A DNA stretch of 64,000 bases from Escherichia coli (GCF_051903065.1 NZ_CP178438.1), one strand, 5' to 3'. Shown: positions 670 to 38,525, counted from the first letter of the stretch. Translations and numbers: made by a program. The notes: generated by a model not told the origin, from the letters alone.

Positions 670-1443
670 TTATCGGAGTAATTTATTGAGCTGATGCAGA
701 ATATCCTGTGTCTGGCTGTCCAGACGCAGCAGATAAAACAGATAAAATACGGCCAGCACAACAAGACCTCCGCACATTACATGCCTGATGGTCAGCCGCC
801 GGATTAACTGATAACGCCCACCCTGTATGTTGTTCTTCTGGTGAAGCAGCGGAAATGGCGCATCGCCGCGCAGTTTGTGCAGGGCATGGTGCAGGCGCTG
901 GTAGATCCGCTCAAATTCATCCTGTTGCTGAATGGCAACCTTGTAGCGCCCGCGAAAGCCGAGCGAAAAACAAAGGTATAAAAATTCCAGCAGATCCTGG
1001 TAACGTACCGGCTCCCGGATAAGGCGTTCGAGCAGGATAAACACTTTCTCGCCGCCCCAGGCTTCGTTATGAAAATGAACCAGCAGCGACTGTTTGATCC
1101 ATTCGTTTTTGTTGGACCAGCCGTTGCCCAGCGCCGCTTCATCAATAAACGTGCAGAGAATGTAACGGAACGAAACAATGACGCCCGGTTCGTATCCCTG
1201 TTCCTGGAGTAGTTGTTCTACGGCCTGGACATCGGTTACCACCTGGGCAAACAGATGTTCTGGCATGGCCTGGCTGTTCATGGTGGACAGACGCATCACC
1301 ATGCCGAGCAACGGCGTGGCGGCGTCAATCATTGGGTTCAGGCTGTTGCCGCGAAGGGCGAGACGGTACTGACGTCCTGATGTTCCGCTCTCCGGCTCCA
1401 TGGGAAAAACCGACGGTTCACCCATACCGCTGATATCGCTCAT
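670..1443 (-). CDS. tssL: T6SS membrane protein TssL (DotU/IcmH family)
   Basis: 257-aa ORF with a C-terminal hydrophobic helix (LVVLAVFYLFYLL) and DotU-like N-domain; sits in a T6SS gene string. Confidence 0.85.
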   Translation of the reverse strand: MSDISGMGEPSVFPMEPESGTSGRQYRLALRGNSLNPMIDAATPLLGMVMRLSTMNSQAMPEHLFAQVVTDVQAVEQLLQEQGYEPGVIVSFRYILCTFIDEAALGNGWSNKNEWIKQSLLVHFHNEAWGGEKVFILLERLIREPVRYQDLLEFLYLCFSLGFRGRYKVAIQQQDEFERIYQRLHHALHKLRGDAPFPLLHQKNNIQGGRYQLIRRLTIRHVMCGGLVVLAVFYLFYLLRLDSQTQDILHQLNKLLR

Positions 1444-1447
1444 TCAC

Positions 1448-2794
1448 TTATCCCCTTATCGCCCAGAGCTGAAGGTTCAGATCGGGGAAGGTGCCGGAGA
1501 TATGCAGCGCCAGCGCGCCCGCTTTTATCACGTCCTGCCAGGCTGGGGTGCCTTTTTCCAGTTCGAAGTAAACATAACCTTCATGCCAGGGCAACTGACG
1601 CGGCGCAGCGGTAAGCGTGTGCAGCGGAATACCCGGCACCTGCACGCTGACCACGCTGCGGATTTTGTCGGTAGCGGCCACTTTCGACTGCTGGATGAAC
1701 TGGCGTTGTACCTGGTCGTAGGGCATCCTGGCGCGCACTGCCAGTACCAGCTTGCAGGACTGCAACAGTGTGGGATCGTTGATGGTGGCGATCCAGGTCC
1801 CCTCTGAAAAGAACAGCGGCAGATTCTGCGCACGCGGCACCAGTACGGTATTGAGCGCGCGCCGCAGTTCCGGGATCACGGTTCTGGTGAAGGTCGCGGT
1901 AAGATCCCTGTGATTATATGGCTCCACGGTGCAGGGCAGGCGATTACCTTCGGTAAAGGTCATCAGTTCTCCCAGCAGCCCCACCAGATCCCGGTAGAAG
2001 GCTTCCGGATGCAGCGTGTGCAGTTGGGAACGATGCGTGAACTGCATTTGATGGCGGTTAAGCATCTGCAACATCATAAATTCGGCTACATCGGCGATCC
2101 CGCTCTGTTCAGGCGAACCAATGCGCCCGGCCAGGTCAGCGGCGCGGGTGGCAAGCAGTCCCTGCACCTCGCCGGAGAATGCCCCGAGCAACCCGCTGAC
2201 ACGGACGGCCTGAATGGTGGGAATAAAGGTGTTGTCCAGCACCAGCGCGCCGGTGGCATTTTTATTGAGGATAAGGCACAGGGGGAGAGTCACCATCGCG
2301 CTGAGATCATCTGCGCCGCTGACTATCCTGGGGATCAACTGTCCCAGACCGACTGGCTGTTCGTCGCCTTCGTCAGTGTGAAAATCACGGACGCGGGTAT
2401 GGGTGAGGCGGTAACGCTCCGTACCCTGACCGGCGCTGTGCAACCCCTGGATTTCATTGATCACGTCGCTTATCACCGGCAGCGCCAGATAAATACTGTG
2501 GCTCTCTTTCGATGAAAGGGTTCCCGGCTGGAAAGGTTCCGGCAGCAGATCTTGGTCGGGAATACTGAATACGGTGCCGTCAGGCATGCAGCCCGCCGCA
2601 CGGTCAATCATAATTTTGCCCTGAGCAAGCAGTTCGGTATTGATGGAGAGTTCCGTAAAGCCCCAGAAAAAATCACCCAGTGCATCCAGACGACGGGTCA
2701 GCAGGTACTCGCAGTGACGCTGCTGTTGCTGAAAATGCTGCGGCAGGGCAAACAGCCCTTCCTGCCAGATCACCTTGTTTTTCATTGTTGCCAT
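1448..2794 (-). CDS. tssK: T6SS baseplate protein TssK
   Basis: 448 aa; N-terminus MATMKNKVIWQEGLFALPQHFQQQ is the typical TssK start; synteny. Confidence 0.9.
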   Translation of the reverse strand: MATMKNKVIWQEGLFALPQHFQQQQRHCEYLLTRRLDALGDFFWGFTELSINTELLAQGKIMIDRAAGCMPDGTVFSIPDQDLLPEPFQPGTLSSKESHSIYLALPVISDVINEIQGLHSAGQGTERYRLTHTRVRDFHTDEGDEQPVGLGQLIPRIVSGADDLSAMVTLPLCLILNKNATGALVLDNTFIPTIQAVRVSGLLGAFSGEVQGLLATRAADLAGRIGSPEQSGIADVAEFMMLQMLNRHQMQFTHRSQLHTLHPEAFYRDLVGLLGELMTFTEGNRLPCTVEPYNHRDLTATFTRTVIPELRRALNTVLVPRAQNLPLFFSEGTWIATINDPTLLQSCKLVLAVRARMPYDQVQRQFIQQSKVAATDKIRSVVSVQVPGIPLHTLTAAPRQLPWHEGYVYFELEKGTPAWQDVIKAGALALHISGTFPDLNLQLWAIRG

Positions 2795-3321: not shown

Positions 3322-4610
3322 GCTTCCGGCTCCCGCTGTTTTTCTCGCAGCACCCGGTCATAGACCTGGGCATAAACTTCATTGAACAGCATTTCAAATC
3401 CTTGCTGTCGGCTGGAGGCCAGCTCATCGTAATAGTTGCTGTACATCTGCCATGCCCAGGCGTCGTCCATTTTCTGGCGCAGTTCATGGCTGCGGCGGTA
3501 TTGCGCAAAGCGGCGCATCAGGTTGCCCGGCGAGAAGGCCTCCAGCATGACACGCAACGCTTCCACAATCGCCGCCCGGTTAGCCTCTTCATGATGCCGG
3601 ATGTTGCGCAGGCTTTCGCCGATGGCCGCGGGTGCTGCGAGATGTACCGGACTTTTACCCTCAGCGAACATGACGTTCAGCGCAGTGGCGTAGTCCATAT
3701 CAAGGCGAAGCGGGTTGTCTTCCAGTGGACGCAGGTGTTTATCCGACAGGCTGTTCTGTTGTTGTTGCAGGCTCAGCAATCCCTTAATGGCAGCCTGCAA
3801 CGCCCGTCCGGCCTCTTCGAGAAACTCATCCGCATCCTGAGAATCGTGCAGCGTCAGCGGGCACTCCATACCGCGCAGCAGCGGGGTCACGGCCAGGTGG
3901 TACTGCGCCATGGCAGAAAATTCATCGTCGTCCTCATAACGGGCATTGCCGGGCGGCAGATCCATAAACGGCGTATTGATCCCGTTTGCACCTGTCAGTT
4001 CGGAGGCGAGGGCGACGGGCCGGGAAACGCGTGGTGCGATCGGATCATCTGCCACCATCAGGCTTTCCGTCTGGAGTGCCTGGAGCGGATCGCTGGAAAA
4101 ACCGTGCGCCACCGTGGGGGCAAGCTGATGCTGGAACGGCATTCCCGGATAGGACGGTTGTCCCTCGGTGGTCAGCAGGGTGTCCGCCAGACTGTCGCGG
4201 TTCATCACAATCGTTTCCGGGGTTGCCATCCGCTCGTCGTAGGTGACAGCCGCGCCGTCATGCAGAAACGCTTTCAACGCCAGTGCACCGAGCTGGATCT
4301 CATCCCCTTGGCGCAGGCGGATGAGCGCACCGGAAGAAACCGGGGCCAGATTAATCATCAGTCCCGGCGTCAGGCACCGCAGGCAATAGGCTCCGTCGTG
4401 CCGGATAACGGTACAGGCACGCGCAGCAATGCTTCCCGCCCGATCCTGTACCTGCCAGTGACATTCCGGCGTATGACCAATATCACCGCCGTTTTCGCTG
4501 AACAGGCATTTTGCGGCGCGTCCGCTTTCCAGTTCGTTGCCATTCATCACCTGTAAAGTCAGTGAGGCCTGGCGGGATTGCTGTTTTTCCTCAGCCATAA
4601 GTGGTTCCAT
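3318..4610 (-). CDS. tagH: T6SS-associated FHA-domain protein (TagH-like)
   Basis: Start moved to the internal ATG at 4610 (MEPLMAEEKQQ...), which follows the tssG stop; FHA-like N-domain (GHTPECHW...IRHDGAYCLRCLTPGLMINL). Confidence 0.75.
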   Translation of the reverse strand: MEPLMAEEKQQSRQASLTLQVMNGNELESGRAAKCLFSENGGDIGHTPECHWQVQDRAGSIAARACTVIRHDGAYCLRCLTPGLMINLAPVSSGALIRLRQGDEIQLGALALKAFLHDGAAVTYDERMATPETIVMNRDSLADTLLTTEGQPSYPGMPFQHQLAPTVAHGFSSDPLQALQTESLMVADDPIAPRVSRPVALASELTGANGINTPFMDLPPGNARYEDDDEFSAMAQYHLAVTPLLRGMECPLTLHDSQDADEFLEEAGRALQAAIKGLLSLQQQQNSLSDKHLRPLEDNPLRLDMDYATALNVMFAEGKSPVHLAAPAAIGESLRNIRHHEEANRAAIVEALRVMLEAFSPGNLMRRFAQYRRSHELRQKMDDAWAWQMYSNYYDELASSRQQGFEMLFNEVYAQVYDRVLREKQREPEA

Positions 4611-4614
4611 AGAA

Positions 4615-5664
4615 TTATTCCCTGATTCGGATGGTGATGGCGGGCGGTACTTTCGGCTGACCAATAAAGCTGGTTCTGCCGAGGCGGGAGCTGGCCGGAT
4701 CGCCAAGGCGCATCCCTTTAGCCTGCTGTGGTGCCAGGCACAGCCGTAAATCCCAGGCAAACTGGTCGCGCAGAATAAAGGAAAGGAACATGGTCAGCGG
4801 CAGGTGATTTTCGCCATCGGGTAAAAATGAGAGATAACGCTCCCGCGACAGGTTGCCAATCTGCAACAGAAATTTTCCGCTGCGATCCGGCACCCGTGCG
4901 CCGAGCGTAAAATTAACGCCAAGTATGGAGCGTCCGGGAATATGTCCAGCCGTTTTTCCTTTCGGATTACGTACACCCAGCCGGTTCTGGTGTGCCGAAT
5001 CAATGGCGACTTTACGTAGTTGCCAGCGTTCAATGGTGACATCCGGCAAATCAAAACAGTGCGACACCAGATTACAGATAACCTCCGGCGCGCGGCCTGG
5101 TGTTGCCAGAATTCCGGCGTAAGCCAGCATTTTGCTGTGGTTAATGGCAAGCCTGTCACGCACGCTCTGATTACCCAGCCCGACCAGCGCGTACATGCGC
5201 TGTGAAAAGGTGTCAGTGCCGCCATTACGAAAGCAGATGTAGTAGCGGTATTTGCGCCAGGCATGATAGGCAAACTGTGTCCAGCGGTGGCTGAACAGAT
5301 CGAGAAATTCTTTAAGGCCGTCTTCGTTCTGTGCGGACTCCTGCGCCATCTGATCCAGATAATAGCCCGGTAGCGGCGACTGGCTGCCGGAAAAGCCCAG
5401 GAAACGGGTTTGCAGTACATACTGTCCGTTCTGGCTACGGGAAAGCACACTCAGGTCCGTACCCGGAAAACCGATATTGGCGTCAGAGCTGAAACGCACG
5501 ATCTCTTGGGCTGGCTCGGTACGCAGGGAAATATCCTGGCCCGGAGCGCCATACCGACGGTACAGCGCCTCCATCAGCACATAGAAATTGCAGTTGCGCA
5601 CATCCGCCGATAACGGCGGTTTTACCGCTATATAAGGGCGTGCTGACCCATTTTCTCCTGCCAT
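4615..5664 (-). CDS. tssG: T6SS baseplate protein TssG
   Basis: 349-aa ORF, TssG/ImpH-like; overlaps the tssF 3' end as is typical. Confidence 0.85.
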   Translation of the reverse strand: MAGENGSARPYIAVKPPLSADVRNCNFYVLMEALYRRYGAPGQDISLRTEPAQEIVRFSSDANIGFPGTDLSVLSRSQNGQYVLQTRFLGFSGSQSPLPGYYLDQMAQESAQNEDGLKEFLDLFSHRWTQFAYHAWRKYRYYICFRNGGTDTFSQRMYALVGLGNQSVRDRLAINHSKMLAYAGILATPGRAPEVICNLVSHCFDLPDVTIERWQLRKVAIDSAHQNRLGVRNPKGKTAGHIPGRSILGVNFTLGARVPDRSGKFLLQIGNLSRERYLSFLPDGENHLPLTMFLSFILRDQFAWDLRLCLAPQQAKGMRLGDPASSRLGRTSFIGQPKVPPAITIRIRE

Positions 5665-7487
5665 TCCCAGGCCTCCTGACTTTCCGTGTTGATGATTTTC
5701 AGACAGTGGTACGAATTGATGCTGGCGTAGAGAGCAAAAAAGTGCGAGAGCACTGTACCAAGAAGATAAATTTCACCTTCGCAGATAAATGGATCGGGAC
5801 GTATCCACAACGTGGTCGCCAGCCCGCGAACCGGCACGCCTTTAAACAACCTGTCAACAGGTTTGGTTTCGAGTTTTTCTATGGCATCCAGTTTCTGGCG
5901 CGACAGTCTGGCCCGCTGCGGATGGTGAGCGCCTGGCAGGTCGAAGGTCCGCAGGATCTGGATCAGTGTCTCCCTGTCCAGCAGGGAGAGGTAGTTCAGG
6001 TTCATCGCGGAAATCAGCGACCAGTGCATGTCGCCGTCCGTGACTGGCCAGAGCGGCTGCGTTGGGCGTGTGACATTATGAAATGAGGCCACCGCCGGGT
6101 TTTTGTTGACGGCCACGCAGATATCGCCGATATGCAGCCGAGCAGGGATCATACGGTTGGTACAGATTAATGACGTGGTGATCACATCATCATTAAACCG
6201 TGAGCTGTCCGGAATGCTGCCGTCCGCATGGACAAAGGCGATACTATGTTCAAGCCCGCGGTGAAACAGGGATGTTTTAGTCCGGTGATGCCAGTAAACG
6301 ACTTCCCGCTGGCGGCTGTACTCCATCTGGTGCTGGAAGCTTTCAAATTCGGGCCAGACACGCGCCTGGCTGCCAGGGTTGGATTCAGTACCTGAAACTT
6401 TGACTTTGCTGGTGACTGTGCTTATCTGAAAAATGTCATAAGCGTCGGGATGCCGGTGGCTGGCGCGCAGCGGGTATTCCGCTATCCGTCCATCAGGCCT
6501 GACGGGTTCCGCATAATGCGTAAACAGGTTAATGGCTGGCGTACAGTGCAGACGCAGTGAGTCCTGGCGTAGCTTGATGTCGGCAGGTAACGGGCGGTTA
6601 AAGTGCAGGCGCAGCGTAAACGCGCTGACCGGGAAATCGTCCGGTAGTGGCGCAACATCGCGCAGATGGAAAAAAAAGAAGGCTTCGGGATAGCAGAAAT
6701 ACTCCTGGAGTACCCGATAGCCGCTGTGGACATTTTTCGGCCACGGTAGCAGGGCGTCCTGGTTTTCAAATCCGGCGGCCTCCAGCCACAGATCCGGCAG
6801 CGGCAGGCGGTACTCTCCGGCAATCAGTTCCGCATCCATCAGGCATTCGCAAAACCACAGATAAAGCTGGTGTCGGGTATAATCGTCTTCATTACCCAGC
6901 CAGAACGTTATTTTGTTCAGGTCAAGCATGGCGGGGGAGACATTGTTATCTGCGGTAAAACTGATATCTATGATGCCTTCTTTCAGGCTGCTGGCGTTGC
7001 GGGTGTCGAGAATGCGCAGTGGTTGCAGCCAGATATCGCGCGCCAGCGTGAAATGACAGGCTACGGAAGAAACGATTTTATCATGATTGTCAGACAGCAC
7101 CTTCTGAGCAGCCAGGGCGGACTTTTCTGAGCGGCTTCTGATCAGTTCATTACGACAGACCTGAACAGGGACTTTTAACTGATCGGTTTTGGGTTCATAG
7201 GCAATAACCGTCATGGCCGGAACCGGGCGTAAATAGTTTGCCCACAGCATACGGATTAGCCCATGAGTGAATTCGGGGAATTCGTCCTCAAGTTTCTGGC
7301 GCAGGCTACCGGACATAAAGGCAAAGGCTTCCATCAGTCGCTCCACGTCCGGATCACCCTCTTTCTCGGCCAGAAAGTGGGCCAGATGTGGTTTTTCCTG
7401 CGCCAGCAGTTTGCCAAGCTGGCGAAGATAATCCAGCTCTTCGCGGTAGTAACGTTCTTCAAAAGCCACAGAGATCACTCCACACAA
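5628..7487 (-). CDS. tssF: T6SS baseplate protein TssF
   Basis: 619-aa ORF; ...EERYYREELDYLRQLGKLLAQEKPHLAHFL is the TssF N-terminal signature. The track start is a TTG, so the exact start (7487 vs a few codons inside) is uncertain. Confidence 0.85.
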   Translation of the reverse strand: MCGVISVAFEERYYREELDYLRQLGKLLAQEKPHLAHFLAEKEGDPDVERLMEAFAFMSGSLRQKLEDEFPEFTHGLIRMLWANYLRPVPAMTVIAYEPKTDQLKVPVQVCRNELIRSRSEKSALAAQKVLSDNHDKIVSSVACHFTLARDIWLQPLRILDTRNASSLKEGIIDISFTADNNVSPAMLDLNKITFWLGNEDDYTRHQLYLWFCECLMDAELIAGEYRLPLPDLWLEAAGFENQDALLPWPKNVHSGYRVLQEYFCYPEAFFFFHLRDVAPLPDDFPVSAFTLRLHFNRPLPADIKLRQDSLRLHCTPAINLFTHYAEPVRPDGRIAEYPLRASHRHPDAYDIFQISTVTSKVKVSGTESNPGSQARVWPEFESFQHQMEYSRQREVVYWHHRTKTSLFHRGLEHSIAFVHADGSIPDSSRFNDDVITTSLICTNRMIPARLHIGDICVAVNKNPAVASFHNVTRPTQPLWPVTDGDMHWSLISAMNLNYLSLLDRETLIQILRTFDLPGAHHPQRARLSRQKLDAIEKLETKPVDRLFKGVPVRGLATTLWIRPDPFICEGEIYLLGTVLSHFFALYASINSYHCLKIINTESQEAWEWQEKMGQHALI

Positions 7488-32112: not shown

Positions 32113-33843
32113 TCAACTCAACGCCCCCATAATCTTCAACTCCAGCTCATCCGGCACTTCGTTATACGACAGCACATGCAGCCCCGGCGCAAACAATCTT
32201 GCATAACGCGCCAGCAAAGGGCGCAGCTGCGGCGGCACCAGCAGCACCGGGTCTTTCCCCGCTGCTTTCATCTGCTCCTTCACCTGCGGCATCGTGCTCT
32301 GGAACTGGTTGAGCATGTTCGGGTCGACCGGCACGCTGTCGAGCATCACTTTACCGCCCTGTTGCGCCTGATTCACCACATTGGTGAGCAGATTTTCCAG
32401 CTCATTATTCAGCGTATACACCGTCAGCTCCTGCTTGCGAACGAACGGATGGGTAATGCTGCGCCGCAGCGCCAGGCGTACATCGACCGCCAGCAGAATA
32501 TGATCTTTAGTCACCGCGCTACTGGCGACCAGCACGGTGGCGATGGTGACGATATCGCGCAGGGAAACGCCTTCGGTCAGTAGTGTGCGGTACACTTTCA
32601 GCAACTGGCTGTAATTCAGCGCCGCGCTTAAGTCTTCTGCCAGGCGCGGTGCCATCGACGACAAACGGTTATGCAACTGTGTGATGTCGTCATAGTTAAA
32701 CAAATCAGGAATATAGCTGCGTACAATCTTATTCACATGGGTGGCAATCACGCTGGCGCTGTCGATCACCTGATACCCCATATTCAGCGCCTTCGCTTTC
32801 TGCGCAGGCTGGATCCAGGTCACCGGCATCCCGTACGCCGGGTCGTTCCCCAGCACGCCGTCAATCTCGCCGTAGGTTTCGCTGGAGGGCAGGGCCATCA
32901 GTTTATCCGCCGGAATATCCGCTTCATCAGCCTTAATGCCGTTGATGAAAATAGCGTACTGGCTGGGCTTAAGGCGGAAGTTTTCCCGAATGCGGATCTC
33001 CGGCAGCAGCACGCCGTTGCCGTCGGATATCACCTGTCGCACGCCGCGAATACGCTGGGTGAGCGGGTTGCCCTGGGCTTTGTCCACCAGCGCCACCAGC
33101 TTGTAACCGAGGCTTAAACTGATAGGCTCGATCAGCGGTATCGTTTCCCAACTGACCTGTTGCTCGCTGGTTTCGGTGATGGTGCGGGTCAGCGTTTCGA
33201 GACTTTTCTCCTCCGCCTCCGCTGCCTGCGGGCGTTTGCTCATCCGCCAGCCGGTAAAGCCAAGCAGGGCGCTGAACAGCAAAAACGGCAGATGCGGCAT
33301 TCCCGGCACCACCGCCAGCACAAACATAATCCCGGTGGCGGTGTAGAGCACCGACGGGCTTGCCAGCAGCTGGTGGCGCACGTCATGGGCGATATCGCCG
33401 TTGTCGCTGACGCGGGTGACGATAATCGCCGCCGCGGTGGAGAGCAGCAGGGAAGGGATCTGCGCCACCAGCCCGTCGCCGATGGTCATCAGCACATATT
33501 GCTGGAAGGCAGCATCGGCGCTCAGGTTGTATTTGAAGATCCCGATACAGACACCGCCGATCAGGTTGATCGCCAGAATCATCATCCCGGCGATGGCGTC
33601 CCCGCGCACAAACTTTGATGCCCCGTCCATCGCGCCGTAGAAATCGGCCTCGCTGGCGACATCTTTACGCCGGGTTTGCGCCTGCGCCTGGTTGATCAAC
33701 CCGGCGTTAAGGTCGGCGTCAATCGCCATCTGTTTGCCGGGCATCGCGTCCAGGGTAAAGCGGGCAGAAACCTCGGAAATACGCTCGGCCCCTTTGGTGA
33801 CGACGATAAAGTTGATTGTCAACAGCGTCAGTAAATCCGAGCG
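32113..33843 (-). pseudogene. lfhA: Flag-2 flhA homologue remnant, 5'-truncated
   Basis: FlhA-like from about residue 135 onward (VTKGAERISEVSARFTLDAMPGKQMAIDADLNAGLI...); N-terminal membrane region absent. Confidence 0.8.
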
Positions 33844-34582
33844 TGAAAGCATTATCGCCGCGCTGCACGGGCAGTCGATTTTCAACGGTGGCGGGTTGTC
33901 GCCGTTAAATAAAATCAGCCCGTCTCATCCGCCAAAACCTGCCACCGTGGCGGTGCCGGAAGAGACGGAGAAAAAAGCGCGCGACGTCAACGAGAAAACG
34001 GCGCTGCTGAAGAAGAAATCCGCCACCGAGCTTGGTGAGCTGGCAACCAGTATCAACACCATTGCCCGTGATGCGCATATGGAAGCGAATCTGGAGATGG
34101 AGATTGTCCCGCAGGGATTACGCGTGCTGATTAAAGACGACCAGAATCGCAATATGTTCGAACGCGGCAGCGCGCAGATTATGCCGTTCTTTAAAACGCT
34201 GCTGGTGGAGTTAGCGCCAGTGTTCGACTCGCTCGATAATAAAATTATTATTACCGGGCATACCGATGCGATGGCCTACAAAAACAATATCTACAACAAC
34301 TGGAACCTTTCGGGTGACCGCGCGCTTTCGGCTCGTCGGGTGCTGGAAGAGGCCGGAATGCCGGAAGATAAAGTGATGCAGGTAAGCGCAATGGCGGACC
34401 AGATGCTGCTGGATGCCAAAAATCCGCAAAGCGCGGGCAATCGGCGTATTGAGATTATGGTGCTGACCAAAAGTGCGTCCGATACGCTGTATCAATACTT
34501 TGGTCAGCATGGGGATAAAGTGGTGCAGCCGCTGGTGCAAAAGCTGGATAAGCAGCAGGTGCTTTCGCAGCGAACGCGCTAA
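33844..34582 (+). pseudogene. lafU: Flag-2 motB-like remnant, 5'-truncated (junction coordinate approximate)
   Basis: OmpA/MotB C-domain (IIITGHTDAM...NWNLSGDRALSARRVLEEAG...NRRIEIMVL); no MotB N-terminal TM segment. Confidence 0.7.
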
Positions 34583-34652: not shown

Positions 34653-35708
34653 ATGCGTAAAATCATTCATGTGGATATGGACTGCTTTTTCGCCGCAGTG
34701 GAGATGCGCGACAATCCCGCCCTGCGCGATATCCCTATTGCTATTGGCGGCAGCCGCGAACGTCGGGGGGTGATCAGCACCGCCAATTATCCCGCGCGTA
34801 AATTTGGCGTACGCAGCGCTATGCCGACAGGGATGGCGCTCAAATTATGCCCACATCTCACCTTGCTTCCGGGGCGCTTTGACGCCTACAAAGAAGCCTC
34901 AAATCATATCCGTGAAATCTTCTCGCGCTACACCTCTCGCATTGAGCCGTTGTCACTGGATGAGGCTTATCTCGATGTCACCGACAGCGTCCATTGCCAC
35001 GGTTCTGCGACCCTCATCGCCCAGGAAATCCGCCAGACGATTTTCAGCGAGCTGCAACTGACGGCGTCTGCGGGCGTGGCGCCAGTAAAGTTTCTCGCCA
35101 AAATCGCCTCCGACATGAATAAACCCAACGGCCAGTTTGTGATTACGCCGGCAGAAGTTCCGACATTTTTACAAACCTTACCACTGGCAAAAATCCCCGG
35201 CGTCGGCAAAGTCTCGGCGGCAAAACTGGAAGCGATGGGGCTGCGGACCTGCGGTGATGTACAAAAGTGTGATCTGGTGATTCTGCTTAAACGCTTTGGC
35301 AAATTTGGCCGCATTTTGTGGGAGCGTAGTCAGGGGATTGACGAGCGCGACGTTAACAGCGAACGGTTACGAAAATCCGTCGGCGTGGAACGCACGATGG
35401 CGGAAGATATTCATCACTGGTCTGAATGTGAAGCGATTATCGAGCGGCTGTATCCGGAACTTGAACGCCGTCTGGCAAAGGTAAAACCTGATTTACTGAT
35501 TGCTCGCCAGGGAGTGAAATTAAAGTTCGACGATTTTCAGCAAACCACTCAGGAGCACGTCTGGCCGCGGCTGAATAAAGCTGACTTAATCGCCACCGCG
35601 CGTAAAACCTGGGATGAACGCCGCGGCGGGCGAGGTGTGCGACTGGTGGGGCTGCATGTGACGTTGCTTGACCCGCAAATGGAAAGACAACTGGTGCTGG
35701 GATTATGA
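34653..35708 (+). CDS. dinB: DNA polymerase IV
   Basis: 351 aa, [20 protein letters not shown]... Confidence 0.97.
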
Positions 35709-36157
35709 ATAACATACAAATAAGAAACTATCAGCCTGGCGATTTTCAGCAACTATGCGCTATTTTCATTAGAGCGGTTATGATGACCGCCAGTCAGCAT
35801 TATTCACCACAACAAATTGCCGCCTGGGCGCAGATTGACGAATCTCGCTGGAAGGAGAAACTCGCGAAATCACAAGTGCGGGTTGCAGTCATTAATGCAC
35901 AACCGGTTGGTTTTATTTCCCGCATTGAACATTATATCGATATGTTATTTGTTGACCCTGAATACACCCGCCGTGGGGTTGCCAGTGCTTTGTTAAAACC
36001 TTGGATTAAGTCTGAATCCGAACTTACGGTGGACGCCAGCATAACCGCAAAACCCTTTTTTGAACGTTATGGTTTTCAGACAGTTAAGCAGCAGCGCGTT
36101 GAATGCCGGGGAGCGTGGTTTACTAATTTTTCTATGCGATATAAACCGCAACATTAA
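35705..36157 (+). CDS. yafP: GNAT-family acetyltransferase YafP
   Basis: 150 aa; ATG overlaps the dinB stop (ATGA). Confidence 0.85.
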
Positions 36158-36462
36158 ATCCAGCTTGCAAGGAAAATAACGCCCGCTTGGTATGTGCGCG
36201 TTTTCTTATTCCACAAACTGCAAGGAGGTAAATCATGACAAATCCTTTATCAATGACTCTTTGCAGACCTTTCCAGGATTAATTCTTTTTTTCTTGCCCT
36301 GGATTCGTCTGCCATTTCCTGATTTTTATATTTATATACTCTAAATAATTCGAGTTGCAGGAAGGCGACAAGCGAGTGAATCCCCAGGAGCTTACATAAG
36401 TAAGTGACTGGGGTGAACGAACGCAGTCGCAGTTCATGCAACTTGAAGTATGACGAGTATAA

Positions 36463-37011
36463 ATGGAATGGTACATGGGCAAATATATTCGTCCCTTATC
36501 CGATGCGGTATTTACCATCGCATCTGATGACCTGTGGATCGAGAGTTTAGCGATCCAACAATTACACACCACGGCAAATTTACCCAACATGCAGCGCGTA
36601 GTGGGGATGCCAGATTTACACACCCCGGACGCGGCTACCCGATTGGCGCAGCGTTCTTCTCTGTTGGTCGTTTTTACCCGGCAAGACGTCGCGGTAACGG
36701 TGCTGGAAACCGAAGCCGGGCGTTATCCTGACACGCTGCGTTCGTCGGGGCCGGGCGGTCAACATGTCAATAAAACCGACTCGACGGTACGCGCCACGCA
36801 TTTGGCATCCGGTATTAGCGTGAAGGTTCAGTCAGAGCGTAGTCAGCATGCTAACAAGCGGCTGGCACGATTGCTGATTGCCTGGAAGCTGGAGCAACAG
36901 CAACAGGAAAATAGCGCAGTGCTGAAATCGCAGCGGCGAATGTTCCATCACCAGATTGAACGTGGCAACCCGCGACGGACATTCACAGGGATGGCTTTTA
37001 TCGAAGGATAA
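36463..37011 (+). pseudogene. prfH: rtcB'-prfH' fusion remnant (release-factor homologue RF-H with GGQ motif, truncated)
   Basis: N-terminal ~50 aa resemble the RtcB N-terminus (...VVGMPDLH...); the rest is release-factor-like ([20 protein letters not shown]...). Confidence 0.6.
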
Positions 37012-37023
37012 TGAAGGATGAAA

Positions 37024-37055
37024 CTGCCGGAAGGCGATTAAACGCCATCCGGCAG
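37024..37055. terminator. Palindromic hairpin between prfH' and pepD (bidirectional terminator-like)
   Basis: CTGCCGGA...TCCGGCAG with inner GGCG/CGCC. Confidence 0.5.
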
Positions 37056-37067
37056 CAAATCAAATAA

Positions 37068-38525
37068 TTACTTCGCCGGAATTTCTTTCAGCAGTTCAGT
37101 CAGCAGTGTCCAGTAATGACCTACGCTTTCGATGTGAACTTGCTCATCCGGAGAGTGTGGACCGGTGATTGTTGGCCCGATAGAAACCATGTCCATTTCC
37201 GGATACGGTTTTTTGAACAGACCACATTCCAGGCCCGCGTGGATAATCTGGATGTTCGGCGTCTTGTTGAACAGGCGCTGATAGGTTTCACGTACCAGAT
37301 GCATCACCGGAGAATTAGCGTCCGGCTGCCAGCCAGGATATGCGCCTTTTGCTTCGGTTTTCGCGCCAGCCAGTTTACCCAGCGAATCCAGCATGCTCAC
37401 CACGTAGTCTTTACCGCTGTCGATCAGAGAACGGATCAGGCAGTGAATTTCTACGTTATTGTCAGTCATGGTCACCACACCGACGTTCAGGGAGGTTTCG
37501 ACCACACCTTTTGCCACGTCGGAATTGCGGATCACACCGTTCGGGGTGGCGTTCAGCAGACGAATAAAGGTATCGCGAGATTTCGCAATCAGGGCAGCTT
37601 TATCGTTCGCAACAGAGTCCAGCAGCAATGCCAGATTCTTCTCTTTTTCTGCCAGCTCGTTTTTCAGGATCTCCTGATAGGTATTCACCAGAGATTTCAG
37701 TGCGTCGACTTTATCAGCTGCGACAGCAATGGTCGCAAAGGCTTCACGCGGGATGGCGTTACGCAGTGTACCGCCGTTGAAATCGATAAGGCGCAGATCC
37801 AGTTCTTCTGCATGACCCGCCAGGAAGCGCACCAGCAGTTTGTTGGCATTACCGAGGCCAACGTGGATTTCACCGCCGGAGTGACCGCCTTTCAGACCTT
37901 TTAAGGTTAACTTGAAGGTTTCAAAACCAGCTGGAACCGCTTCACGATCTAAATGCAGGTTGGAGGTGAAGTCGATACCCCCCGCGCAACCCATGTAGAT
38001 TTCACCTTCTTCTTCGGAGTCGGTGTTAATCAGAATATCAGCCTGCAACCAGTTGCTCTGTAAGCCAAAAGCACCGTCCATACCGGCTTCTTCGGTCATG
38101 GTCAGCAGCACTTCCAGCGGACCGTGAACCACGTTTTCGTCAGCCAGAACCGCCAGTGCAGAGGCCATACCAATGCCGTTATCCGCACCCAGCGTGGTGC
38201 CGCGCGCTTTAACCCATTCGCCATCAATATAAGGCTGGATAGGATCTTTCGTGAAGTCATGCACGGTGTCGTTATTTTTCTGCGGCACCATATCGAGGTG
38301 GGCCTGCAAGACGACCGGTTTACGATTTTCCATACCTGCTGTAGCAGGTTTACGAATCAGGATATTACCTACCTGATCGCGTTCGACATGGAAACCTTTC
38401 TCTTTTGCCCAACCAACAATGTATTCAGCGAGTTGCTCTTCATGATAGGACGGGTGAGGAATAGAACAGATTTTGGCAAAAATATCCCACAGCGGCTGTG
38501 GAGATAATTGAGACAGTTCAGACAC
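37068..38525 (-). CDS. pepD: Cytosol nonspecific dipeptidase PepD
   Basis: 485 aa, matches PepD. Confidence 0.97.
   Translation of the reverse strand: MSELSQLSPQPLWDIFAKICSIPHPSYHEEQLAEYIVGWAKEKGFHVERDQVGNILIRKPATAGMENRKPVVLQAHLDMVPQKNNDTVHDFTKDPIQPYIDGEWVKARGTTLGADNGIGMASALAVLADENVVHGPLEVLLTMTEEAGMDGAFGLQSNWLQADILINTDSEEEGEIYMGCAGGIDFTSNLHLDREAVPAGFETFKLTLKGLKGGHSGGEIHVGLGNANKLLVRFLAGHAEELDLRLIDFNGGTLRNAIPREAFATIAVAADKVDALKSLVNTYQEILKNELAEKEKNLALLLDSVANDKAALIAKSRDTFIRLLNATPNGVIRNSDVAKGVVETSLNVGVVTMTDNNVEIHCLIRSLIDSGKDYVVSMLDSLGKLAGAKTEAKGAYPGWQPDANSPVMHLVRETYQRLFNKTPNIQIIHAGLECGLFKKPYPEMDMVSIGPTITGPHSPDEQVHIESVGHYWTLLTELLKEIPAK

Follow-up and report, generated by a model that had tools for sequence, protein, structure and literature searches.

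A rarer and more decayed allele of the known rtcB2-prfH pseudogene pair in Escherichia coli, preceded by an intact leader uORF

The RtcB2-PrfH module, encoded in intact form by E. coli ATCC 25922, acts on ribosomes that have been cut in the 16S decoding centre (i.e., colicin E3-type cleavage): PrfH frees the peptide, and RtcB2 religates the rRNA (PMC9304027, PMC9223846). In the intact module, the ligase has 379 aa and the release factor 204 aa, and their genes are translationally coupled by an ATGA overlap. In E. coli PrfH (EcPrfH), residues 2 to 98 and 180 to 204 form the rRNA-recognition domain and residues 108 to 161 form the GGQ domain, with Q122 as the catalytic residue; H294 of RtcB2 was mutated in the same study (PMC9304027). 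A deletion of ~1,000 nt in K-12, W3110, and O157:H7 was described by Baranov et al. in 2006, and the K-12 locus was termed a pseudogene (PMC1586002). The K-12-type truncation alone is enough to abolish protection against colicin E3, to which BW25113 was sensitive while the intact ATCC 25922 was protected (PMC9223846).

The orthologous operon in Pseudomonas aeruginosa, consisting of armZ (RtcB-like) and PA5470 (prfH), is preceded by the leader peptide PA5471.1 and is regulated by stalling-dependent attenuation; the induction of downstream genes by stalling on a leader uORF is known only for P. aeruginosa (PMC12057347, PMC13041342).

We analysed a window of 64,000 nt from E. coli (NZ_CP178438.1; i.e., the whole stretch of DNA under study), in which a locus of unambiguous rtcB2-prfH ancestry occupies the E. 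coli chromosomal site flanked by dinB/yafP and by pepD-gpt-frsA (Table 1). The gene order is lfhA' (truncated), lafU, dinB, yafP, the locus, pepD, gpt, and frsA, and it is syntenic with that of the intact loci, a synteny that extends to Salmonella. The kilobase at 36100-37100 is 100% identical to the sequence of strain ECNB21-M121, and just 3 of 5,449 matching records reach at least 99% identity over it. For this identical sequence, PGAP calls two pseudogenes, namely an "RtcB family protein" (frameshifted, C-terminus missing) and a "peptide chain release factor-like protein" (N-terminus missing). The locus is the already known pseudogene pair in a rarer, more decayed allele. It shares with the K-12 ykfJ/prfH pseudogenes (PMC1586002) the chromosomal site, a 1,027-bp junction, an ERIC insertion, and the leader, but it additionally lacks 189 bp, has gained two nucleotides (AC), carries six substitutions, and is without yafN-yafO. 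With the intact module of ATCC 25922 (PMC9304027, PMC9223846), it shares orthologous DNA that is 96 to 98% identical, the leader, the start, and the GGQ domain, but neither of the two activities would be expected of it.

Several features of the surroundings were recorded alongside the locus. The window lacks the yafN-yafO toxin-antitoxin pair that separates dinB from yafP in K-12, and the dinB stop and yafP start overlap by ATGA at 35705-35708; the same overlap occurs in four of the compared genomes (L004, L007, L009, and L011). Another genome (L010) contains yafN without yafO, so the yafN-yafO module is polymorphic among E. coli genomes. The segment at 32113-34582 is a remnant of the Flag-2 lateral flagellar cluster, where lafU lies next to a truncated, minus-strand ORF resembling flhA; in the matching RefSeq record, this remnant is annotated as a pseudogene plus lafU. 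The prfH remnant and pepD converge on a GC-rich inverted repeat, which is likely to be their shared terminator, to judge from its sequence; a simple terminator scan did not pick it up. A promoter scan of 36100-37100 found none, and ORFs on the minus strand or in alternative frames (114, 61, and 65 aa) had no family matches. Besides a sub-threshold ERIC-like match, Rfam gave only a weak match to the Salmonella sRNA candidate STnc350 (23.4 bits against a cut-off of 60; E = 0.2; 36169-36241, minus strand), which is antisense to the start of the leader and is probably due to chance.

Table 1. Features of the rtcB2-prfH remnant, its leader, and its surroundings (positions are those of the window unless another sequence is named)
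Feature	Position	Strand	Details	Basis
dinB	34653-35708			
yafP	35705-36157			
Leader	36218-36327	+	110 nt	
SD helix	36218-36227 with 36257-36266	+	5' arm CTGCAAGGAG with uORF codons 8-10 CTCTTTGCAG	folds
uORF Shine-Dalgarno	36222-36229	+	AAGGAGGT	sequence
Leader uORF	36235-36282	+	MTNPLSMTLCRPFQD and stop; 15 codons, intact	sequence
Helix P2 (predicted)	36263-36278 with 36297-36312	+	GCAGAC/CCAGG with CCTGG/GTCTGC	RNAalifold
Helix P3 (predicted)	36312-36319 with 36465-36471	+	5' arm CCATTTCC; partner GGAATGG, just before the rtcB2 start	
ERIC/IRU-type palindromic repeat	36334-36457	+		alignment gap; hairpin
ORF	36463-37011	+	182 aa	
rtcB2 codons 1-49	36475-36621	+	in frame	100% identity to L003; NCBIfam NF007153, profile 1-50
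AC expansion	36618-36623	+	ACAC to ACACAC, 2 bp	alignment
rtcB2 codons 50-69	36622-36681	+	out of frame, ~18-19 residues	alignment to intact loci
1,027-bp deletion junction	36675-36683	+	junction at ~36681/36682; microhomology TACCCGRCA	alignment
prfH codons ~32-49	36682-36732	+	rRNA-recognition domain fragment	alignment
Remaining repeat copy	36733-36744	+	lone ACRCTGCGTTCG; 189-bp junction at 36732/36733	alignment
prfH codons 117-204 and stop	36745-37011	+	GGQ domain, linker 2, C-terminal piece of rRNA-recognition domain	
GGQ motif	36754-36762	+	ORF residues 98-100	
GC-rich inverted repeat	37024-37055	.	between convergent prfH remnant and pepD	sequence only
pepD	37068-38525		convergent	
8-mer GCCGGGCG	prfH nt 354	direct	6 nt past the 3' repeat	
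8-mer GATAACGC	prfH nt 181	inverted	inside the deleted segment	
169-bp deletion, example	L011 (E. coli AR24.2b), 1346-1755			

A sequence-only reading of the window had described an ORF of 182 aa that begins like RtcB and continues as a release-factor homologue with a GGQ motif, and comparison with intact sequences bore out both parts. ORF residues 5 to 53 are 100% identical to residues 1 to 49 of RtcB2 (379 aa) from the intact locus L003, and residues 90 to 172 match the Pfam RF-1 domain (PF00472; E = 8e-23). In order, the ORF contains RtcB2 residues 1 to 49, ~19 out-of-frame residues, PrfH residues ~31 to 49, and PrfH residues 113 to 204. The annotated RtcB2 start (MGKYIRPL) is at 36475, and the mechanical ORF start lies 12 nt earlier (the products being 178 and 182 aa, respectively). 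The solved EcPrfH chain (7sa4_8) aligns with the ORF in two blocks (i.e., residues 25 to 54 and 106 to 204) with nothing between them. Some features speak against a dead locus. The prfH-derived frame has no stop over 110 codons, and most of the GGQ domain survives, its first five residues being replaced by the repeat-derived GRYPD. Since neither the start signals of rtcB2 nor the leader ahead of them has been damaged, the fusion protein could be made.

We aligned the window with the K-12-like locus of strain JME67 (L002) and with the intact loci of strains AR_0017 (L003; rtcB2 at 4248-5387, prfH at 5384-5998) and CP131_Sichuan (L004). The alignment with the intact loci was heavily gapped and gave no full-length match, and it resolved three lesions. 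The largest is a deletion of 1,027 bp that joins rtcB2 codon ~70 to prfH codon ~31 (L003 positions 4453-5479 are missing) and leaves the first ~69 codons of rtcB2, which agrees with the earlier statement that the ligase gene has been reduced to fragments. Its junction is identical in the K-12-like genomes, and it is the deletion published for K-12. The next lesion is an in-frame loss of 189 bp (63 codons; PrfH residues 50 to 112), located as predicted between two TLRS-encoding repeats: in intact prfH, the 12-bp sequence ACRCTGCGTTCG occurs as a direct repeat at nt 148 and 337, its two copies encoding T-L-R-S at PrfH residues 50-53 and 113-116. The smallest is a 2-bp expansion of an AC repeat, which shifts the rtcB2 frame after codon 49 and places the RtcB2 start in the prfH frame. 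The insertion joins the two frames because the K-12 prfH remnant is in the +1 frame relative to rtcB2, and when the AC was taken out in silico, the RtcB2 sequence was restored. In all, 310 RtcB2 residues and 94 PrfH residues have been lost. Within 36160-37011, the sequence-only reading had mentioned neither the identity of the large deletion with that of K-12, nor the AC insertion, the ERIC repeat, or the leader uORF.

Of the parts that define the two proteins, the GGQ domain is the one retained, as evident in the Pfam RF-1 match and in the aligned block of 7sa4_8 from residue 106 to residue 204. Against the PrfH model TIGR03072 (cut-off, 166.65 bits), the ORF scored 145.8 bits over profile positions 111 to 200 only, while intact PrfH scored 328.9 bits and the K-12 remnant scored 272.1 bits. 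The RtcB models were matched at their N-terminal ends only: NF007153 gave 63.9 bits over profile positions 1 to 50 (cut-off, 407; intact protein, 641.9), and TIGR03073 gave 53.4 bits (cut-off, 271.8). About 19 of the 97 N-terminal residues of the PrfH rRNA-recognition domain are left (i.e., ~31 to 49), with residues 1 to 30 lost to the 1,027-bp deletion and residues 50 to 112 lost to the 189-bp deletion; the C-terminal piece is kept. RtcB2 is gone beyond residue 69, including the catalytic core (metal ligands and nucleophilic His), and the ATGA overlap that couples the rtcB2 stop to the prfH start (L003 positions 5384-5387) lies inside the deleted 1,027 bp. Because the ORF product lacks the ligase active site and nearly all of the rRNA-recognition domain, it would be unable to perform either step of the pathway. 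With both parts below the NCBIfam cut-offs and two pseudogenes called by PGAP on the identical allele, the description of the locus as a fused pseudogene was correct.

We are therefore confident that the locus is a non-functional remnant of the chromosomal rtcB2-prfH operon. The lesions and the missing domains are observed, and from them we infer the loss of function and an origin of the deletions in slippage or recombination. The 1,027-bp deletion, flanked by microhomology, took RtcB2 residues ~70 to 379 and PrfH residues 1 to ~30; a second, rarer deletion of 189 bp between the 12-bp direct repeats took PrfH residues 50 to 112; and the 2-bp expansion of the AC repeat brought the RtcB2 start into frame with PrfH. 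In this reading, the 182-codon ORF is an accidental by-product of the lesions. The window-specific substitutions in the remnant number four (two nonsynonymous and two synonymous), a small sample for a selection test.

A palindromic repeat of the ERIC type separates the leader from the rtcB2 start and falls within the loop of the predicted helix P3. The K-12-like genomes carry it, L003 lacks it, and L004 has part of it. The repeat forms a long imperfect hairpin (-59.2 kcal/mol; z = -10), and its match to an Rfam family (V_AS5, 50.9 bits) is below the threshold. When the region was used as a query, a median of six places per genome was recovered (one match, H40, being core-only), and the extra places are due to the ERIC repeat; the window contains one copy. 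Thus, the element has the properties of the ERIC/IRU class, i.e., it is an imperfect palindrome of ~125 bp that occurs in several copies per genome and is variably present.

The lesions differ widely in their distribution among 5,426 complete E. coli genomes. At least 80% of the 1,751-bp operon is kept in 2,675 of them (about half), and the K-12 junction, traced by a 50-mer across it, occurs in at least 1,552, which is a lower bound. Thirty-two genomes have the 189-bp deletion junction and 11 have the AC insertion, all 11 being listed among the 32; consequently, the fusing frameshift is absent from 21 of the 32 carriers. A separate class, with 32% operon coverage, has undergone an independent secondary deletion of 169 bp in the K-12-type remnant that removes the GGQ-coding region, so the same pseudogene has decayed further in parallel lines. 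Since several independent secondary lesions have occurred and most carriers of the 189-bp deletion lack the frameshift, neutral erosion is indicated rather than selection for the fusion, and the population pattern fits neutral decay. A side observation concerns E. coli O157:H7 TR01 (L012, NZ_CP033605.1), in which the window-type junction occurs twice at 3461-3800, and 105 bp of the segment that the window has lost lie between the copies of an 84-bp duplication. In other O157:H7 genomes, the locus is of the plain K-12 type, and the duplicated arrangement may be an assembly or polishing artefact.

These data bear on two other accounts of the fused ORF. The ORF might be a neo-functional small release factor that carries the GGQ domain on a new N-terminal scaffold and acts on stalled ribosomes in the manner of ArfB (YaeJ)/ICT1, which it resembles in having a GGQ domain without a codon-recognition domain. 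The GGQ domain, the C-terminal helix, and the open frame are indeed kept, as are the leader and the start context that a functional gene would have, and one metagenome contig encodes a PrfH of 141 aa in which this internal deletion is combined with an intact N-terminus. However, the ArfB model NF006718 reached 27.7 bits against a cut-off of 100 and matched the GGQ motif alone (residues 91 to 110), the ORF lacks the C-terminal tail of ArfB, and the EcPrfH subfamily is without a C-terminal tail that probes the mRNA channel (PMC12829566). Moreover, the ~19 residues at the fusion are out-of-frame rtcB2, other lineages lose the GGQ region itself, and the fusion is not what the lineage retains, because two-thirds of the carriers of the internal deletion (the 21 noted above) are without the fusing frameshift. 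We therefore consider a new function very unlikely. Errors of sequencing or assembly in the source genome, to which the AC insertion and the 189-bp deletion might be ascribed given that dinucleotide-repeat length errors and repeat collapse are common artefacts and that the related TR01 record has an odd duplicated arrangement, are less credible still. Three independent complete genomes share one 301-bp sequence at 100% identity, and the genomes that carry the junction or the insertion come from differing hosts and countries and are joined by metagenome contigs. Given this independent recurrence, the error account is effectively refuted, and decay of the operon by successive lesions is the reading that we retain.

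How the 189-bp deletion arose is less clear-cut, owing to a cluster of six substitutions beside its junction (36715, 36717, 36720, 36723, 36726, and 36727) that spans 13 bp and lies 5 to 17 bp from the junction, whereas the sequence around it shows ~98% identity to other alleles. All 32 deletion carriers have the cluster, and no complete E. coli genome has it without the 189-bp deletion. Rather than by simple slippage, the deletion may have formed in a complex template-switch event that also wrote the six substitutions, although we regard this as doubtful. In its favor are the perfect linkage of cluster and deletion in the 32 carriers, the presence of the cluster on another haplotype background (L013 versus L018), and the fact that all six changed bases lie inside two 8-mers found elsewhere in intact prfH (Table 1), an outcome seen in 115 of 20,000 shuffles in a test devised post hoc. 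A single 8-mer match arose in 18% of the shuffles, which weakens the argument. Further, four of the six changes are synonymous and at third positions, and Salmonella PrfH likewise has Pro at the S48P site, which hints at a leftover of a diverged functional allele. Such an origin would be marked by GAAGCCGGGCGTTATCCTGAC in an undeleted prfH, with GAAGCCGGGYGTTATCCTGACACNCTGCGTTCNGCGCT representing the cluster joined to sequence that is not deleted. When 100,044 species genomes were scanned for an exact 21-mer, no donor of the cluster turned up, an absence that favors the template switch. A degenerate scan of the same genomes for E-A-G-[RC]-Y-P-D-T-L-R returned a lone chance match in an unrelated Bacillota gene, which was rejected as a donor. 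We also considered whether the contexts of the two TLRS repeats could have been mixed to give the cluster and set this aside, only approximately half of the changes fitting by eye.

The metagenome contig mentioned above (L013; ERZ27303400 k141_1586817, 767 bp) encodes the 141-aa PrfH with an intact N-terminus and contains an intact rtcB 3' end. It has the 189-bp deletion, the cluster, and an extra CGT-to-TGT change that gives EAGCYPD, and its flanks match L018, a common intact type found in 241 genomes. No complete E. coli genome has this arrangement, and the contig represents a recombinant that is rare or else a chimera of the assembly.

The 110-nt leader upstream of the remnant presents a different picture. 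It is at least 99% identical in 5,371 of 5,399 E. coli records, whereas the kilobase next to it varies much more; when E. coli is compared with Salmonella, ~95 nt (i.e., the 3' half of the uORF and the next block) are nearly invariant, and the flanks do not align. RefSeq has no feature annotated at the leader, Rfam 15 contains no family that matches it, and the PrfH/RtcB2 literature, as far as accessible, does not mention it. The uORF is identical in the K-12-like and intact E. coli loci. We scanned 420 nt upstream of rtcB in eight loci for ORFs of 6 to 40 codons that are preceded by a Shine-Dalgarno (SD) sequence, and each of the eight had exactly one, of 13 to 16 codons. The encoded peptides include MTVYSLNALCRPFQD (Salmonella), MQQLITLCRSRLA (P. 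putida), and MNRYNIFCRSFFE (Aliikangiella), as well as MNYQALFTLCGSYPQA, MRRAFTLCRSCQA, and the divergent MRHTASFLAERAQA in further loci. The SD context GCAAAGGAG..ATCATG is found upstream of rtcB in all eight loci, CTTTGCAG is kept in five, and the 7-mer TTTGCAG is kept in six. LCR or FCR occurs in six of the eight (five distinct peptides, both E. coli loci sharing one); the uORF of L021 has LCG, and that of L022 is without an LCR/FCR-type motif.

Folds were also predicted for the leader RNA. In minimum free energy folds, the SD region pairs with the uORF segment CUUUGCAG in E. coli, Salmonella, P. putida, Aliikangiella, L021, and L023. RNAalifold proposed two further helices, one pairing the Cys-Arg codons with a downstream GYCUGC and the other pairing CCAUUUCC or CCAAUCC with GGAAUGG or GGAUUGG before the rtcB start. 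Over an alignment of just five species, 23 pairs were predicted, 4 of them with compensatory changes, which fall in both helices.

These features are those of a PA5471.1-type leader, namely a short uORF with a strong SD and a conserved motif upstream of rtcB-prfH. The locus has in common with the PA5471.1 operon a uORF of 13 to 16 codons with a strong SD, 110 to 240 nt upstream of an rtcB-family gene that is followed by prfH, together with an ...LCR(S/P)... motif and predicted leader helices. CAG (Gln) is reported as codon 3 of PA5471.1 (PMC13041342), which we compared by description only, and the P. putida uORF has the same codon. Unlike in the PA5471.1 operon, the genes in the window are dead, and the ERIC element lies between the leader and the rtcB2 start. 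By this analogy, the E. coli uORF is probably a counterpart of PA5471.1. The fuller proposal, i.e., that the leader is the sole part of the locus still under constraint, that it is a PA5471.1 counterpart, and that stalling on it switches the enterobacterial ribosome-repair operon on, we hold to have an even chance of being right. Under this proposal, one helix would pair the Cys-Arg codons with downstream RNA, and the other would sequester the rtcB2 start.

The allele described here represents one further step in the documented decay of rtcB2-prfH, which is seen in about half of E. coli, and its carriers should match K-12 in their sensitivity to colicin E3-type 16S rRNA cleavage. It provides an example of serial pseudogene erosion, from a microhomology deletion through a repeat-mediated deletion to a dinucleotide slip, and it illustrates that accident alone can yield a long ORF with two genuine domain signatures. 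The observation on the leader might matter more than the pseudogene itself and is perhaps the sole item that would repay further work. If the stalling proposal is true, the window contains an orphaned sensor, and the leader might link the regulatory logic of P. aeruginosa armZ to the enterobacterial ribosome-repair module.
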